DNA of 62,990 nt, counting the filler, from Globobulimina sp. (taxonomy: Eukaryota): assembly GCA_003354225.1 (NCBI GenBank). It is 36 parts of 36 records of this genome, joined end to end, with 100 filler letters (N's around TTAATTAATTAA, not from the genome) between each part and the next. Parts side by side here need not be neighbours in the genome. Positions count along the whole stretch, not along the records: positions 21,042 to 22,694 come from PIVH01013578.1; 35 more parts are not named here. One strand, given 5' to 3'. Under the pieces are notes generated by a model. It ran no database searches. It worked only from the letters and a program-made list of their open reading frames with translations, and was not told the DNA's origin. Made by a program: the position numbers and the translations under genes. Shown here one piece after another: positions 19,345 through 61,359 of this stretch (the first letter of the stretch is position 1; each line of letters starts with the position of its first letter).

Positions 19345-20567
19345 GCGAAATCAAAACAAGTTTGGGTGAGTTAGTAGATAAGAAATCTATAAATTGGCAA
19401 CAATGGGACAATAAAAAGAAGAAATATAAATCCAAAAATTGTGGACAATTATTGATCAGATATTGTAACATAATCAAAAAATACTCGTTTACCAGTTATT
19501 TACGCGGCGGATTAGAGATTCAGATGATGGTTGCTATAGATTTTACGGGAAGTAACGGCGATCCACGCGATCCCAAATCGTTGCATTATATGGGAGCACC
19601 TCATTATGAGTCGCAATATATGAAAGTAATAAAATCTGTGGGCCGTGTCTTAGAGCCATACGGTATGAAATATGTCATTATATGTATTGAAATATAATAA
19701 AAAACACATAATATGACAGACGCCGATGGCGAGATAGCAGCATATGGTTTTGGCGCAAATCTCAACCCATACGGCAAGCAAATCAGTCATTTTTGCAATT
19801 CGACGCTAACGCCAAACAACGAAAAAGTTCCAGGCATTGATGGTTTGAGCGAAGCCTACAAAAATTGTCTAAACAAAGTACAACTGTATGGACCTACATA
19901 TTTCAGTGAGATTTTGACCAACGCCGCTGCCAAATCCATAGGTGTTTGCAGCCAAAACGCGCAGTCTTACAATATATTGTTAATAATCACCGACGGTGTC
20001 ATCAATGATATGCAACGATCCATCGACGCAGTGGTGGATGCCACGCGATTGCCATTATCCATCATTATCGTAGGTGTAGGCGATGCGGATTTTAGTAATA
20101 TGGATACATTGGACGCCGATGATGAGCCATTACGGCATAGCCGCACTCGCAAGTATATGGAGAGGGATATTGTGCAATTTGTGCCGTTTAATGAGTTTAA
20201 AAACCTCCATATGAGTGCCATCGCGAAGGAGACGTTGGAAGAGGTGCCGAGACAGGTCACCTCGTTCATGGCCATGCATAATATTTGTCCAAATCGGCCC
20301 AAACATAATAAGCAACCGAGTATGGACAATATGTATGCGGCGTTGTCCATTGCCCCGGATAGCAATCCGTATATACCGCAGGAGGAAATGAAGCAAGTCA
20401 ATCCGCCGCCGGCTGCCTATGGAGGCGGCGGGATGTACAGTGAGGGCGCGATAACTGTACAGGTACAACCCGGTGGTGCCAATAATAGGCCTCCGCCTGC
20501 TTATAATGCAAAAAATAATGTGCCTGCAAATCCCTATTATAACAATTATGGTGGTTTTAAAGATTAA
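19345..20567 (+). CDS. Copine (vWA domain plus Pro/Tyr-rich tail; intron 19663-19719), 5'-partial
   Basis: VAIDFTGSNGDPRDPKSLHY, LYGPTYF, ILLIITDG, LPLSIIIVGVGDADF, RDIVQFVPF. Confidence 0.96.
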
Positions 20568-21041: not shown

Positions 21042-21523
21042 AAATTGTAACCCTGCTCTTCCACTTTGACTCTTTCGTTTTGTTTTCGTTTTTTTGCTGT
21101 CTTTACTGTCTTTACAATCACTCCCGATGCCATCAGCAAGATTTGCCATATATTTATTTACGGCTCGAGTTCCTTCGGATTGGGCATGCTGTATTATTAA
21201 AGATTGTATATATTATATCAATACCATATGTAATATGTATTATTAATAACTTTTGATAATTCCAATGGGAATATTAATTGTGATGCTGTTTGAATGCTTC
21301 TTGCATCCAAAGTTGTTTTTGCATTTATTGCTAATAGATTTACCGATTCATATATGATGCGTTCAAACATATCTTTGACAAATGAATCCATGATTAACAT
21401 GGCCTGTTTAGACATCCCTATTTCTGGATGAGTTTGCTTTAATACTTTGAATAAATATAAATTATAAGTTTCAATGCGTTTTATATTGTGTTTGACTTTG
21501 ACTGAAGAGACTGAAACTGCCAT
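21042..21523 (-). CDS. Histone H2B-H2A fusion (doublet histone; intron 21189-21250), 3'-partial
   Basis: H2B fold YLFKVLKQTHPEIGMSKQAMLIMDSFVKDMFERI...ELSK|HAQSEGTRAVNKY continues with no stop through a linker into SQSGRAGLQF, the H2A signature. Confidence 0.85.
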
Positions 21524-21552
21524 TATCGAATGAGTTTTTTTCAACTTTCAAG

Positions 21553-22491
21553 TTAAGATAGGAACTTATAAATAACTCTAAATGTCTGTTTTTTAAATCT
21601 GTCCCATTTAACTTGATACATTATCAATGCAATTAGTAATAGCAAATAAAATGCAATTAACCACAAACTTAATTTTGTTTTATTTTCTTCCTCTTTTTTT
21701 GTTTGTGCCCAAACCAATATTCCCCTCATTTCAATGTAACGATTATCTTTCACAATATAATAATGTTTGGGTGCGAGCGATTTCATTTTTTTATCTTTGA
21801 TTTTATCACATTTTACGTATTGTGGATTTAATGCAATTTCAAATACTCCAACACAACTCAATGATGCACCTAATTTTGACTTATTCCATGTTTTACACAT
21901 TTTAGAAAATGAACGAGATAATGAAATGGCACTCGTTAAATAAATGCCATCACCAAATATGGCACCGGATCTCATTTGTGTGGTATTACTCATATTTTGC
22001 AAATTATGTTCAATGATTGCATGCCAATTATAAGTGGGACTGCCATGATAAGCTATCACCGATCCAAATTTTTCTTTACTTTGAATAAATTCATTAAATG
22101 GCTTAGCTTTTGCTTTATAATTACGATTGACCATAAACTGATAGTTACAATTTATAACTTCATTAAAATCTGGCTTTGGTAGAAATGATAATCCATTTGG
22201 ATTTGTTTCATGTTTCATTGGTTTTGATATTACAAACCATTCAATCAAAGCACGGCATTCTTCATTCAAATCAATCCATGATTTTTTAATATTATTTATG
22301 GTTGGCAAATTTGTGAGTGTTTGTTTTAGCAAATGCAAGTTTGGTTTTCTTATATTTGAAGAATAATTGAACTTTGCTGGCAATTCTTTAATAATTCGCG
22401 AATAATTTGATTGTTGAAAACAACAATGCAACAGAGATACTCTTAAATCTAGGCCTAATTCATCCAAATCATTTAAAAGCTTTAAATCCAT
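21553..22491 (-). CDS. PARP16: PARP16-like tail-anchored mono-ADP-ribosyltransferase
   Basis: AYHGS..NWHAI, FGDGIYLTS and HYYIV give the H-Y-Y triad; C-terminal TM helix. Confidence 0.85.
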   Translation of the reverse strand: MDLKLLNDLDELGLDLRVSLLHCCFQQSNYSRIIKELPAKFNYSSNIRKPNLHLLKQTLTNLPTINNIKKSWIDLNEECRALIEWFVISKPMKHETNPNGLSFLPKPDFNEVINCNYQFMVNRNYKAKAKPFNEFIQSKEKFGSVIAYHGSPTYNWHAIIEHNLQNMSNTTQMRSGAIFGDGIYLTSAISLSRSFSKMCKTWNKSKLGASLSCVGVFEIALNPQYVKCDKIKDKKMKSLAPKHYYIVKDNRYIEMRGILVWAQTKKEEENKTKLSLWLIAFYLLLLIALIMYQVKWDRFKKQTFRVIYKFLS

Positions 22492-22794
22492 ACTTGACAA
22501 ATAAATATTTAATTTGACATGACGTGGAGACTGAACTGAAGAGCTAAACTGTTTCTAAACTGTTTCGACATCACATGGCACTAAACAGTACTAAATTTGG
22601 CTCAGTAGCTGCTGGCAAGATTGCTTATTTGAAACAATTAAAATACAAAGATTGGCATAGAAAAAGGCTTGCTTCATACATCAGATCAAATATCNNNNNN
22701 NNNNNNNNNNNNNNNNNNNNNNNNNNNNNNNNNNNNNNTTAATTAATTAANNNNNNNNNNNNNNNNNNNNNNNNNNNNNNNNNNNNNNNNNNNN

Positions 22795-50828: not shown

Positions 50829-52480
50829 TTGGCTGGCTCCGCCATTAGGGGCGGAGCTTGACCAGTGGCCATTCTGGCCCTGGTCTTCTGGTCATTCAAC
50901 CAGTTTGCTCGCTGACCAACAGCTCATCTAATTAATTGGTTTTTATTCCCACCCACCTTCCCTTTCTACTCTGCAGATTACTGTACATAGATTTCTTTAC
51001 GCACTTACATACTGCCATTTATTTCAGATCTCATCTCTACTCTTAATTCATCATTGCCTACTGCCACTCTGGCGGGTTTTCTGCCGGGGGTTATAGATAC
51101 TCTCATTCATAGTAAATCGCCGGGTACTATTAAAGCCTATCTGCGGGCTTTCTCTGTTTTTGCTACATTTGCTCATGAGCAGGGTTTTCAGGCTGTACCT
51201 GCCTGTCCTATCCATGTAGTTATCTATCTCGAGTCGCTCAGGCTTAAAAAATTAGCGGCCTCCACTATTCAGTCGGCCTTTTACGCCATTGCGTGGGTAC
51301 ACCGTTTGGCACAGTTTCATGATTTTGCAGATGACGTCATGTGCAAAATGTTTCTGGAAGGCCTTCGGCGTTCCGCGGTTATTCGCACTTGTCGGTCTGT
51401 ACCGGCCGATGTGGCTGTATTGGAGGCAGTGCAGCAGCAAGCCGCACTCTCTAAGGAGTTTGTGGATTTTCGCACCCTGTTTTTTTGCCTGTTGGCCTTT
51501 GCAGGCTGTTTACGTTATGACGATTTAGCGGAAATCGCTTTTGCTGACATCAGCATCGAGCCAGCTGGGCTCTCGATCTACCTGGCCCGTAGTAAAACAG
51601 ACCAGCACAAAGCTGGCCATTATGTTTTCTTGGCCGACACCCACTCTAGTCTATGCCCCAAGCGTAATTTCGGCATTTATGCAGATTGGTGCAAAAAATT
51701 CGGCCGAAGCCCTTCCGACCTCTTATTTTGGTCCCTTTCCACGGGAAGGCCTCTGTCGCGTGACACCATTTTGGCCCGTTTGCGTGCCTTATTAAAAAAG
51801 GGTAATCACCCATTGCATAAGGTTATCACCTTGCACTCTTTTCGTATCGGTTGTGCGTCGGTTCTCGCCTCGAAAGGCGTCGATTCACTCCAAATACGGC
51901 AACTCGGCCGTTGGCGAACCAATGGTTCGTTTGACCGATATGTCCGCCCTACACCAGGCAATCAGCTACATATTAGCTCGGCTTTAGGCCTGTGAAGGTG
52001 TCACATGTTTCCTTTTCAGGTATTCTCAAAACCATAGCAGCCATGCCACGTCAAGATTTCGATGACTGGACCACCTCCCTTCCGGACGATTGGTTCCCCA
52101 TGGACAAAGCCATTCGTCGCAGCCATCGGTTATTAGCACGTAGCTAATAGTATCTTATATGATAAAATCTTGTTTTATTTGATTTAATGCGTAACTTTGT
52201 TTTTTATGCTGTTCTGCTTATGCTATGCTAAGTTTAATTTGTGTTGTATTCTTTTGAATGATTACTGTATTTAATTATATTGTCATGTTTATTCTTTGTA
52301 CGTGGTAACGTCATAATTATGCCTTTATGCTTTCTAGTACTTATGTACATACATTCTTTGCGAGCAAATAAACGGTTGCAAACTCAAACATATGTAATAT
52401 ATTCTTAGCCTTAAAGGCTGCGAAGTGAAAATTACTTTTTCACGAACGTAGCAAGTGAAAATATTATTAACCTAGGCAGG
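50829..52480 (+). mobile_element. 3' part of a tyrosine-recombinase retrotransposon (DIRS/Ngaro-like)
   Basis: Intact YR ORF with higher GC than the host genes, preceded by a WPFWP-type peptide typical of the DIRS pol end. Confidence 0.7.
51054..51995 (+). CDS. Tyrosine recombinase
   Basis: Core-binding domain, then GCLRYDD, RSKTDQ, HSFRIG, GRW and RYVR (R-K-H-R-W-Y). Confidence 0.93.
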   Translation: MPTATLAGFLPGVIDTLIHSKSPGTIKAYLRAFSVFATFAHEQGFQAVPACPIHVVIYLESLRLKKLAASTIQSAFYAIAWVHRLAQFHDFADDVMCKMFLEGLRRSAVIRTCRSVPADVAVLEAVQQQAALSKEFVDFRTLFFCLLAFAGCLRYDDLAEIAFADISIEPAGLSIYLARSKTDQHKAGHYVFLADTHSSLCPKRNFGIYADWCKKFGRSPSDLLFWSLSTGRPLSRDTILARLRALLKKGNHPLHKVITLHSFRIGCASVLASKGVDSLQIRQLGRWRTNGSFDRYVRPTPGNQLHISSALGL

Positions 52481-59488: not shown

Positions 59489-59588
59489 NNNNNNNNNNNN
59501 NNNNNNNNNNNNNNNNNNNNNNNNNNNNNNNNTTAATTAATTAANNNNNNNNNNNNNNNNNNNNNNNNNNNNNNNNNNNNNNNNNNNN

Positions 59589-60135
59589 CATTTATGCACG
59601 ACATCGCATAATAAAAGTACATAATGGTGTGAATAAATGAATTTTCTACCACGAATATCCATGCCCCGGTACTTTGAAAAACTAAACCTGCCCACATTCC
59701 AATTACCGCTCCACAATGATGGAACGTTTGAAGTAAAATAGGTCGTTTACCACGTGCGATCACTAAAAATGTATCAACAAATTCATAAAATTTGCTCAAA
59801 TAAAATAAATAGGTCCAATATCCAAAAATGCTTTGAATACCGCCAGATAATAATCCTTCTAATTTTTTATCACAAAGAGCTCCATTCAATCCTTCCCTTA
59901 ATAACAAGGATGAAATTAATGGAAATGTGTTATAAAAAGTTAATGCTGAAAAAAGACATAATAAAATATTGTGCATAAACATAAATAATTTTAATTTTGT
60001 CATTGGTTTATTTTTTGGTTTTGTTGTTTTGGTTGGTGATGCTTTTAATTTTGGTGTTGGTTGTGTTGACGGTTGAAAATAAATTGTTGTAATTATGTAT
60101 AGTATCACACCAACCATTGGATATCTATAAATCAT
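59589..60135 (-). CDS. ELO fatty acid elongase, copy A (3'-partial)
   Basis: HN..L, FYLSKFYEFVDT, LQTFHH, NSFIHTIMYFYY. Confidence 0.93.
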
Positions 60136-60675
60136 ATGATATATTAAAAACGTGTTATATTAATCATATGATATGAGTTATACCTGAATTGAGTGTAGGG
60201 GAATGTTTCTGTGTCAATATTAACATTGGCGAATAGAGATTGGGTGGACATCTTAGAAGGCAGGCTGTTGAACTCAGGTTTAATTTGAAAACTTTTATTT
60301 TTCCATATTCCAGCAATCTGTGAGCCAGGAATAGGACCTATGTCCTGATTGAATTTTTCATAATACTACATGTTTTATTCTAAAAGGGCCATAAATGCAA
60401 GTTTAGTTATGTTGGTAAATGTTGTTCGGTATACAATTAGACCAGAAACAAAACGTAAACAGTTGTTTCTTGTTTAATTGTATGCCAATACTCATCAGAT
60501 TCAGAAGTTACTGTACATTCTTTATCACTAAAAAATCCAAATCAATTTATACAATCGAACCTATCGTTAATTACGTAAACAAAAAAGTATTTGTGGAGTG
60601 ACATTCAACCTAAAATTAATTGTTTGTTTGATGAATAATACAAATACAAACTGCAAAATCAATTATAACATTTTC

Positions 60676-61239
60676 TTAATTTTTCTTTTTCTTTTTATAG
60701 GTGTTTTTATAAAAAGCACGAAATAATAACAATAAACAACTGGTATAAATAATATGATACCAAATGGCTGCTTTGTCCTCAAATCTCATACATTCGCCAT
60801 AACCAAACATCATTATTAAACTGATACTGTTTCCAATGACAAATTGTATCATTTGAGCTTGCGTTATAATGCTCTTGAAAGGCAATCTCACATTTATGCA
60901 CGACATCGCATAATAAAAGTACATAATGGTGTGAATAAATGAATTTTCTACCACGAATATCCAAGTTCCTGTACTTTGAAAAACTAAACCTGCCCACATT
61001 CCAAATACTGCTCCACAATGATGAAAGGTTTGGAGTAAAATGGGTCGTTTACCACGCGCGATCACTAAAAATGTATCAATAAATTCATAAAATTTGCTCA
61101 AATAAAATAAATAGGTCCAATATCCAAAAATGCTTTGAATACCGCCAGAATATAATCCTTCTAATTTTTTATCACAAAGAGCTCCATTCAATCCTTCCCT
61201 TAATAACAAGGATGAAATTAATGGAAATGTGTTATAAAA
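60676..61239 (-). CDS. ELO fatty acid elongase, copy B (5'-partial)
   Basis: Same motifs as copy A plus ITQAQMIQF and a C-terminal KKKKN ER signal. Confidence 0.93.
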   Translation of the reverse strand, partial: FYNTFPLISSLLLREGLNGALCDKKLEGLYSGGIQSIFGYWTYLFYLSKFYEFIDTFLVIARGKRPILLQTFHHCGAVFGMWAGLVFQSTGTWIFVVENSFIHTIMYFYYAMSCINVRLPFKSIITQAQMIQFVIGNSISLIMMFGYGECMRFEDKAAIWYHIIYTSCLLLLFRAFYKNTYKKKKKN

Positions 61240-61359
61240 NNNNNNNNNNNNNNNNNNNNNNNNNNNNNNNNNNNNNNNNNNNNTTAATTAATTAANNNNN
61301 NNNNNNNNNNNNNNNNNNNNNNNNNNNNNNNNNNNNNNNACTAAAAAGAAATATTAATA

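Follow-up and report, generated by a model that had tools for sequence, protein, structure and literature searches.

Histone doublets in which H2B is followed by H2A in a single chain are known from the Marseilleviridae, where the Melbournevirus doublet (PDB 7n8n) is one polypeptide that forms an intramolecular dimer, and from the laboratory, where engineered H2B-H2A chimeras with the same order of halves are available (PDB 6w4l, 7ybf, 8yjm, 4m6b, and 2jss). The titles of the structure entries indicate that complexes with chaperones and other partners contain such engineered fusions instead of the H2A-H2B dimer. Published reviews, in their passages on the subject, give a fused H2B-H2A as unconfirmed in any cellular eukaryote. 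In the relevant sections of one of them, an evolutionary ratchet is held to have fixed histones as separate proteins prior to the last common ancestor of eukaryotes (LECA), and the survey described there covers viral proteomes only (Talbert et al.; PMC9145170). A second source, in the passage concerned, has eukaryotes doing without fused histones "as a rule" (PMC10919886), and the doublet passages of a third concern viruses only (Grau-Bove et al., bioRxiv 10.1101/2021.11.30.470311). Our own literature search, which stopped short of subscription journals and supplements, found no description of foraminiferal or Balamuthia doublets.

In the present work, we establish the structure, splicing, continuity into H2A, family, and phylogenetic place of a natural H2B-linker-H2A gene. 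We consider it likely that this is a real, transcribed, and spliced eukaryotic gene, most probably foraminiferal, and that its family arose by fusion of an H2B and an H2A of foraminiferal type rather than by capture of a Marseillevirus-type gene.

The window analyzed here, that is, the whole stretch of 62,990 bases, is made up of about 36 contigs of roughly 1653 bp each, joined by N44-TTAATTAATTAA-N44 spacers. It holds a single copy of the doublet gene, which lies on the minus strand at the low end of a contig of 1653 bp (21042-22694), next to an upstream neighbor. The features of this contig are as follows.

21553..22491, minus strand: PARP16/ARTD15-like gene, the upstream neighbor, 312 aa with a hydrophobic C-terminal stretch (translation and Pfam)
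21524..21558, minus strand: 5' leader, probable transcript start region (ends of spliced contigs)
21251..21523, minus strand: exon 1, 91 aa, with the ATG, a short H2B N-tail (about 17 aa), and the H2B histone fold ending in ELSK (translation)
21189..21250, minus strand: 62-bp phase-0 intron GTTATT...ATACAG, of GT..AG type (sequence and run contigs)
21150..21188, minus strand: first part of exon 2, the H2B C-terminal helix HAQSEGTRAVNKY (translation; aligns with full-length doublets)
21072..21149, minus strand: 26-aa linker MANLADGIGSDCKDSKDSKKTKTKRK, basic at the H2A end (translation and alignment)
21042..21071, minus strand: beginning of the H2A half, SQSGRAGLQF, truncated where the contig stops (translation)

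On re-translation, the coordinates and residues that a first-pass annotation of this DNA had assigned to H2B, the intron, the linker, and the H2A start all proved correct. Exon 1 matches the Pfam Histone family (PF00125, E = 3.2e-9) and is 69% identical to a doublet of the foraminifer Nonionella stella (P0003) over the H2B part. Retention of the intron leads to an in-frame stop 18 codons on, directly after YYIWY; its removal restores the H2B C-terminal helix, as that annotation had proposed, and places HAQSEGTRAVNKY, MANLADGIGSDCKDSKDSKKTKTKRK, and SQSGRAGLQF in one frame that runs free of stops to the contig end, which falls literally at the H2A start, at position 21042. The core H2B fold and the H2B-specific C-terminal helix are both present, as judged from Pfam, the splice, and the alignment with relatives, and the order of H2B and then H2A in one reading frame is that of giant-virus (Marseilleviridae-type) doublets. 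In genomic DNA, one unbroken exon reaches from the H2B C-helix through the linker into the H2A start; the junction thus lies inside an exon and does not exist solely by virtue of a predicted splice between two genes. At the equivalent place, the linkers of relatives measure 13-19 aa. An Rfam scan of the window gave no matches.

Transcription and splicing were followed in four public runs aligned to the contig, of which X6 and X7 are RNA according to an automated guess, X2 is of unrecorded kind, and X1 is DNA-like, none of the listed runs being registered as RNA. X2, X6, and X7 come from three studies and carry three organism labels, and one contig in each of them skips exactly 21189-21250 (CT..AC on the plus strand, that is, GT..AG on the gene strand). 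In the DNA run X1, the contig follows the genome colinearly and includes the intron. In X2, X6, and X7, the depth of the bin that holds the intron equals the value expected from the 15 exon bases of that bin alone, so that none of these runs covers the intron; and since contigs from three studies carry exactly this joint, the joint is not a chance product. The call of the first-pass annotation for transcripts across intron and linker is thereby answered: the transcript-like contigs of all three runs remove the former and run through the latter. Their upper ends, at 21535 (X2), 21544 (X6), and 21558 (X7), each run on into sequencing adapter, which is only a hint of a transcript start, contigs being no proof of an RNA end. 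The gene stretch, or part of it, is present in runs of four studies.

The same contigs carry the sequence beyond the window's contig. Past 21043, the X6 contig continues for 229 nt and the X7 contig for at least 255 nt, and 1002 nt of the 1473-nt X7 record lie beyond the window's contig. Translated in frame with the window, 30 nt of the X6/X7 extension read ...SQSGRAGLQFPVGRIARYL, continuing as PVGRIARYL, and H2A therefore goes on past the contig end. The first-pass annotation had named a stop or non-histone sequence right after RAGLQF as an outcome that would speak against a doublet; what follows there is H2A, the N-terminal motif RAGLQFPVGR being made up of the window's SQSGRAGLQF and the run contigs' PVGRIARYL (10 aa visible in the window and nine more from the contigs). 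That the gene itself encodes a complete H2A fold is predicted from its relatives and from the length of the X7 record. The X6 and X7 sequences are variants 95-99% alike. Among the listed differences between them and the window, all three inside the histone fold are synonymous, the H2B tail carries one synonymous difference and one change of V10 to A, and four adjacent letters in the linker change GI to AA, which places all three amino-acid changes in tail and linker. Small as these numbers are, the pattern would fit constraint on the histone fold.

Immediately upstream lies the PARP16-like gene, whose stop is 29 bp before the histone ATG, an unusually tight spacing. It matches Pfam PARP (1.8e-11) and, below that model's cut-off, ARTD15_N (2.4e-4); the Atlas clusters closest to it are of PARP16 type and wholly (100%) eukaryotic, and its relatives include ENA/JGI/Logan proteins at 55-62% identity and a Gonium protein at 25%. 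The run-contig ends of the two genes lie no more than about 20 nt apart (21535-21558 for the histone, 21537-21559 for the PARP16-like gene), which suggests that the two transcripts abut or overlap, although contigs do not prove RNA ends. The spliceosomal-type intron, together with this cellular neighbor, suggests a nuclear location for the doublet gene.

Relatives were sought in several protein collections. A word-indexed search for longer proteins gave 51 candidates and three matches, namely P0003 (239 aa, EukProt, 69% over H2B), P0004 (218 aa, 55%), and an ordinary long plant H2B. An exhaustive search of representatives gave 3460 matches at E ≤ 0.001; among the 20 examined from the best 150, P0014 turned out to be a doublet fragment and the proteins with several histone stretches to be tandem H2B mispredictions. 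When P0003 itself was used as the query, the 120 proteins listed comprised three EukProt entries (P0003 itself, P0159, and P0267) and otherwise fish, plant, and hagfish predictions, and the two of the latter that were examined (P0174 and P0184) were both tandem H2A-H2A models.

The fusion thus recurs in the EukProt transcriptomes of two foraminifera, where the first-pass annotation had advised looking for it: Nonionella stella has P0003 (239 aa) and the 167-aa fragment P0014, and Bolivina argentea has P0159, P0277, and P0267 (245-271 aa). The earlier guess of a rhizarian or foraminiferan source agrees with these closest relatives. The full-length foraminiferal doublets (239-271 aa) have the same H2B-H2A order and a complete H2A, and the three that were scanned (P0003, P0267, and P0277), like P0004 from Balamuthia mandrillaris, each show two Histone stretches and Histone_H2A_C (PF16211). 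All aligned doublets share the junction ...KAV.KY.AN, a basic linker, and SQS.RAGLQFPVGR, and within Bolivina there are divergent paralogues (P0267 versus P0159/P0277). Judged by sequence, then, this is a doublet family common to at least three foraminiferal data sets. In the alignment, the relatives keep the H2A residues LEY..AE..E, RIIPRH, and [ND]DE/DDE, which we take to lie in the acidic patch of H2A and in the DNA contacts of the nucleosome; on the H2B side, the corresponding glutamates and the lysine that precedes Y in AVNKY are retained in the window. The C-termini differ among the relatives: the Bolivina proteins P0277 and P0267 end in ...SQQY, which resembles the SQ-[E/D]-hydrophobic tail motif of H2A.X, and the Nonionella protein P0003 ends in KKFKK.

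For phylogenetic analysis, H2B and H2A domains were extracted with HMMs built from doublets, kept if they stopped no more than 8 positions short of the HMM at either end (186 of 237 for H2B, 210 of 336 for H2A), and freed of identical rows; nine IMG/VR giant-virus repeat rows were taken in, the Melbournevirus doublet not being among them. A quick H2B tree of 155 rows united the six foraminiferal rows in one clade (SH-aLRT 92), with a stand-alone H2B of the foraminifer Reticulomyxa filosa (ETO25278.1, P0066) as its sister (support 81). A more careful tree of 57 rows, composed of 22 rows of interest and 35 of 133 canonical ones thinned to below 85% identity, again placed the six foraminiferal rows, the window included, in one clade (UFBoot 97/SH-aLRT 91), which lies within a crown H2B group of 47 rows (99/94); eight of the nine viral repeat rows fall outside that group. 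The sister of the foraminiferal doublet clade is unstable between the two trees, being the Logan protein P0021 in the careful one (90/86), where P0066 pairs elsewhere. In H2A trees of 108 and 37 rows, the four foraminiferal halves came together as a single clade (support 97 in the former, 95/97 in the latter), with stand-alone H2As around it. In neither the H2B nor the H2A trees do the foraminiferal halves branch with viral repeats outside the crown eukaryotic histones, and identity to the Melbournevirus chain (7n8n_B) is 32%.

Counting motifs across the 155 H2B rows adds to this picture. KYMA occurs in four rows (three foraminiferal doublets and P0066), T[LIMV]DAR in six (five doublets and P0066), and MSK[QK]AM in seven (five doublets, Balamuthia, and P0066). 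The R. filosa protein thus resembles the doublets in all three motifs and is their sister in one tree; it differs in its long basic tail, in its place in the careful tree, and in ending ...QKYMAK, with no H2A, where the doublets continue as KYMAN.... The clade position, the rare motifs shared with P0066, and the KYMA end together favor a fusion within the foraminiferal lineage, which would have drawn on that lineage's own H2B. The first-pass annotation had left two origins side by side, an independent fusion and a domesticated viral gene. Because the halves are crown-eukaryotic and carry motifs of a foraminiferal stand-alone H2B, the former is favored over the domestication of a Marseillevirus-type gene.

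Crown-type doublets also occur outside the foraminifera. Balamuthia mandrillaris "Histone H2B type 1-A" (KAL6057556.1, P0004), known here as a gene model, is such an H2B-H2A doublet with MSKQAM, and three identical copies (P0004/P0275/P0276) stand on contigs of 110-168 kb. It differs from the foraminiferal proteins in its unrelated linker and in grouping apart from their clade (96/90, H2B tree) with the following doublets.

L002, 1422-2111: doublet in a giant-virus MAG
L013, 719-1585: doublet in a metagenome
L014, 491-1186: doublet in a metagenome

By sequence and tree position, these four may represent a second crown-type doublet lineage that is linked to viruses. Forcing the foraminiferal doublets and those of Balamuthia, L013, L014, and L002 into one H2B clade cost 2.9 log-likelihood units (p-AU 0.42), and the same constraint for H2A cost 6.2 units (p-AU 0.31; L002, which has no complete domain, was left out). 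Two doublet origins, one foraminiferal and one in the Balamuthia/giant-virus group, are thus what the best tree indicates, and one origin with transfer is unrejected by the AU test. Among the wider viral material, giant-virus doublets, triplets, and quadruplets from IMG/VR (L001-L011) are 31-58% identical in H2A, and the metagenome contigs L012-L016 contribute four more doublets and one H4-H2B-H2A-H3 quadruplet. The histone repeats at L016 4494-5849, L007 1098-2282, and L001 1674-2657 (H4-H2B-H2A-H3 and H4-H3-H2B-H2A quadruplets and an H2B-H2A-H3 triplet) are viral histone repeats already in print.

A structural comparison was made with an AlphaFold model of the relative P0003, not of the window protein, built on a 5-row alignment (pLDDT 71); the H2B fold and H2A helices 1-2 are modeled well, the C-terminal third of H2A poorly (pLDDT about 50). 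Its best fold matches are engineered single-chain H2B-H2A proteins (TM 0.81-0.87 by target length, 51-58% identity), for example 6w4l (TM 0.87 by target length, 57% identity), and these are likewise the best phmmer matches of P0003 in the PDB (E 1e-65 to 1e-70). Unlike these laboratory constructs, the window gene is natural, with a 26-aa linker of its own and with its H2B tail shortened. The Melbournevirus doublet, which shares the order of halves in one polypeptide and the intramolecular dimer, matches the model with a TM of 0.72 by target length; it differs in being viral, in ranking 38th among the fold matches, and in its 32% identity to P0003. Marseilleviridae are described as having no spliceosomal introns in the part of the review that treats them (Talbert 2022, PMC9145170).

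From these comparisons, a working mechanism can be proposed. The two halves would fold together as an intramolecular H2A-H2B handshake dimer, with the linker standing in for the H2A N-terminal tail and tethering the H2B C-helix, at its end, to the beginning of H2A. The doublet would then join H3-H4 in nucleosomes, acting as an obligate 1:1 H2A-H2B unit, one in which the H2B tail is short (about 17 aa) and H2A has no free N-terminus. Conservation of contact residues and likeness of fold are consistent with such incorporation into nucleosomes. The doublet is probably a variant that exists alongside stand-alone histones; that it is a variant is more likely than that it is the only form, because a stand-alone H2B, one whose tail is long and basic, exists in R. 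filosa.

Several other explanations were weighed against a cellular, nucleosomal doublet. It is extremely improbable that the gene is an artefact, either of chimeric assembly or of a model that splices neighboring H2B and H2A genes as in fish and mammal "fusions". Animal "doublets" investigated in the pertinent section of Talbert et al. 2022 were mis-annotations (PMC9145170), and many fish, plant, and hagfish rows turned up in the P0003 search, the two examined being tandem H2A-H2A models of the sort that review warns against; but here the C-helix, linker, and H2A start share an unbroken genomic exon, the junction is conserved in two other species, and the gene is covered by a DNA-run contig and by three spliced contigs from different studies. 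An artefact is already contradicted by these observations; the first-pass annotation had itself listed a chimeric junction as a danger, and three independent run assemblies and the DNA-run contig span the junction. A viral owner is a more substantial alternative, although we hold it to be unlikely. A giant virus (Nucleocytoviricota), infecting or integrated, would in that case use the protein to package viral DNA as Marseilleviridae doublets do. Such an owner would suit the H2B-H2A order, a hallmark of giant viruses whose IMG/VR contigs hold doublets, triplets, and quadruplets, as well as the very tight gene spacing and the short 1.65-kb contig with its one neighbor; one viral-MAG doublet, L002, falls within the crown H2B group, the joint clade with the foraminiferal doublets is unrejected by the AU test, and some nuclear giant viruses have spliced introns, according to the passage on introns in Talbert 2022 (PMC9145170). 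Against this, a foraminiferal cellular H2B is the sole other holder of the rare motifs seen in the foraminiferal doublets, both halves (judged from P0003) show 51-58% identity to eukaryotic histones versus 32% to the Melbournevirus doublet, eight of nine viral rows stand outside the crown H2B group, the neighbor is a eukaryote-type PARP16, one species (Bolivina) has divergent paralogues, and the stretch or part of it recurs in runs of four studies. An IMG/VR scan with doublet-specific patterns points the same way, none of its 238 matching stretches being a relative, but it used two short patterns only and is hence weak.

A cellular doublet might instead serve outside the nucleosome, for example as a decoy for chaperones, as a storage form, or as a regulatory subunit, and the short, poorly basic H2B tail and the burial of the H2A N-terminus in the linker would be in keeping with this. 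We judge such a role quite improbable, given the high identity to nucleosomal H2A and H2B, the retention of RAGLQFPVGR, RIIPRH, the acidic-patch positions, and the H2A C-terminal domain, a linker that is basic and not acidic, and the replacement of the H2A-H2B dimer by same-order engineered fusions in many solved complexes; the SQQY ends of two Bolivina doublets, which are like the H2A.X tail motif, also argue against it. At the other extreme, the doublet could be the main or only source of H2A in these Foraminifera, with the same crown-type family perhaps exchanged with giant viruses and Balamuthia. This too has a low probability in our estimation; were the doublet indeed the main or only H2A source, nucleosomes would consist of an H3-H4 tetramer and two fused H2B-H2A chains, and the family would count as a cellular, naturally occurring exception to the ratchet that is proposed to have acted against histone fusion before LECA.

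The preferred reading, a foraminiferal fusion that yields a nuclear histone variant, has consequences of its own. An expressed, spliced, and conserved H2B-H2A family in a cellular lineage would mean that re-fusion after LECA is possible, and foraminiferal doublets would offer a natural system for studying the costs of fusion, that is, its effects on tails, variant exchange, and chaperone handling. The finding also bears on whether viral crown-type doublets could derive from hosts.

The remaining contigs of the window, whose overall G+C is about 31%, were sampled through ten ORFs. Eight of these find matches in ordinary families of eukaryotes (dynein heavy chain, UCH, gelsolin, copine, ELO, F-box, an SGSH_C sulfatase domain, and C-type lectin), from which we infer that the assembly is that of a eukaryotic cell; of the other two, one matches Phage_integrase and one gave no match. 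The Phage_integrase (tyrosine recombinase) ORF, at 50991-51995 on the plus strand, stands on a contig of about 40% G+C, as against about 31% for the window, and may belong to a Crypton/DIRS-like mobile element. Near-identical fragments of the ELO family (fatty-acid elongase) are found on two contigs (59533-60159 and 60676-61287, minus strand) and could be alleles, recent paralogues, or assembly redundancy. In the copine gene, a 57-nt GT...ACAG intron predicted from the sequence at 19663-19719 (plus strand) would join ...LEPY to DADGEIAAYGFG, and it has a short, AT-rich form like that of the histone intron.
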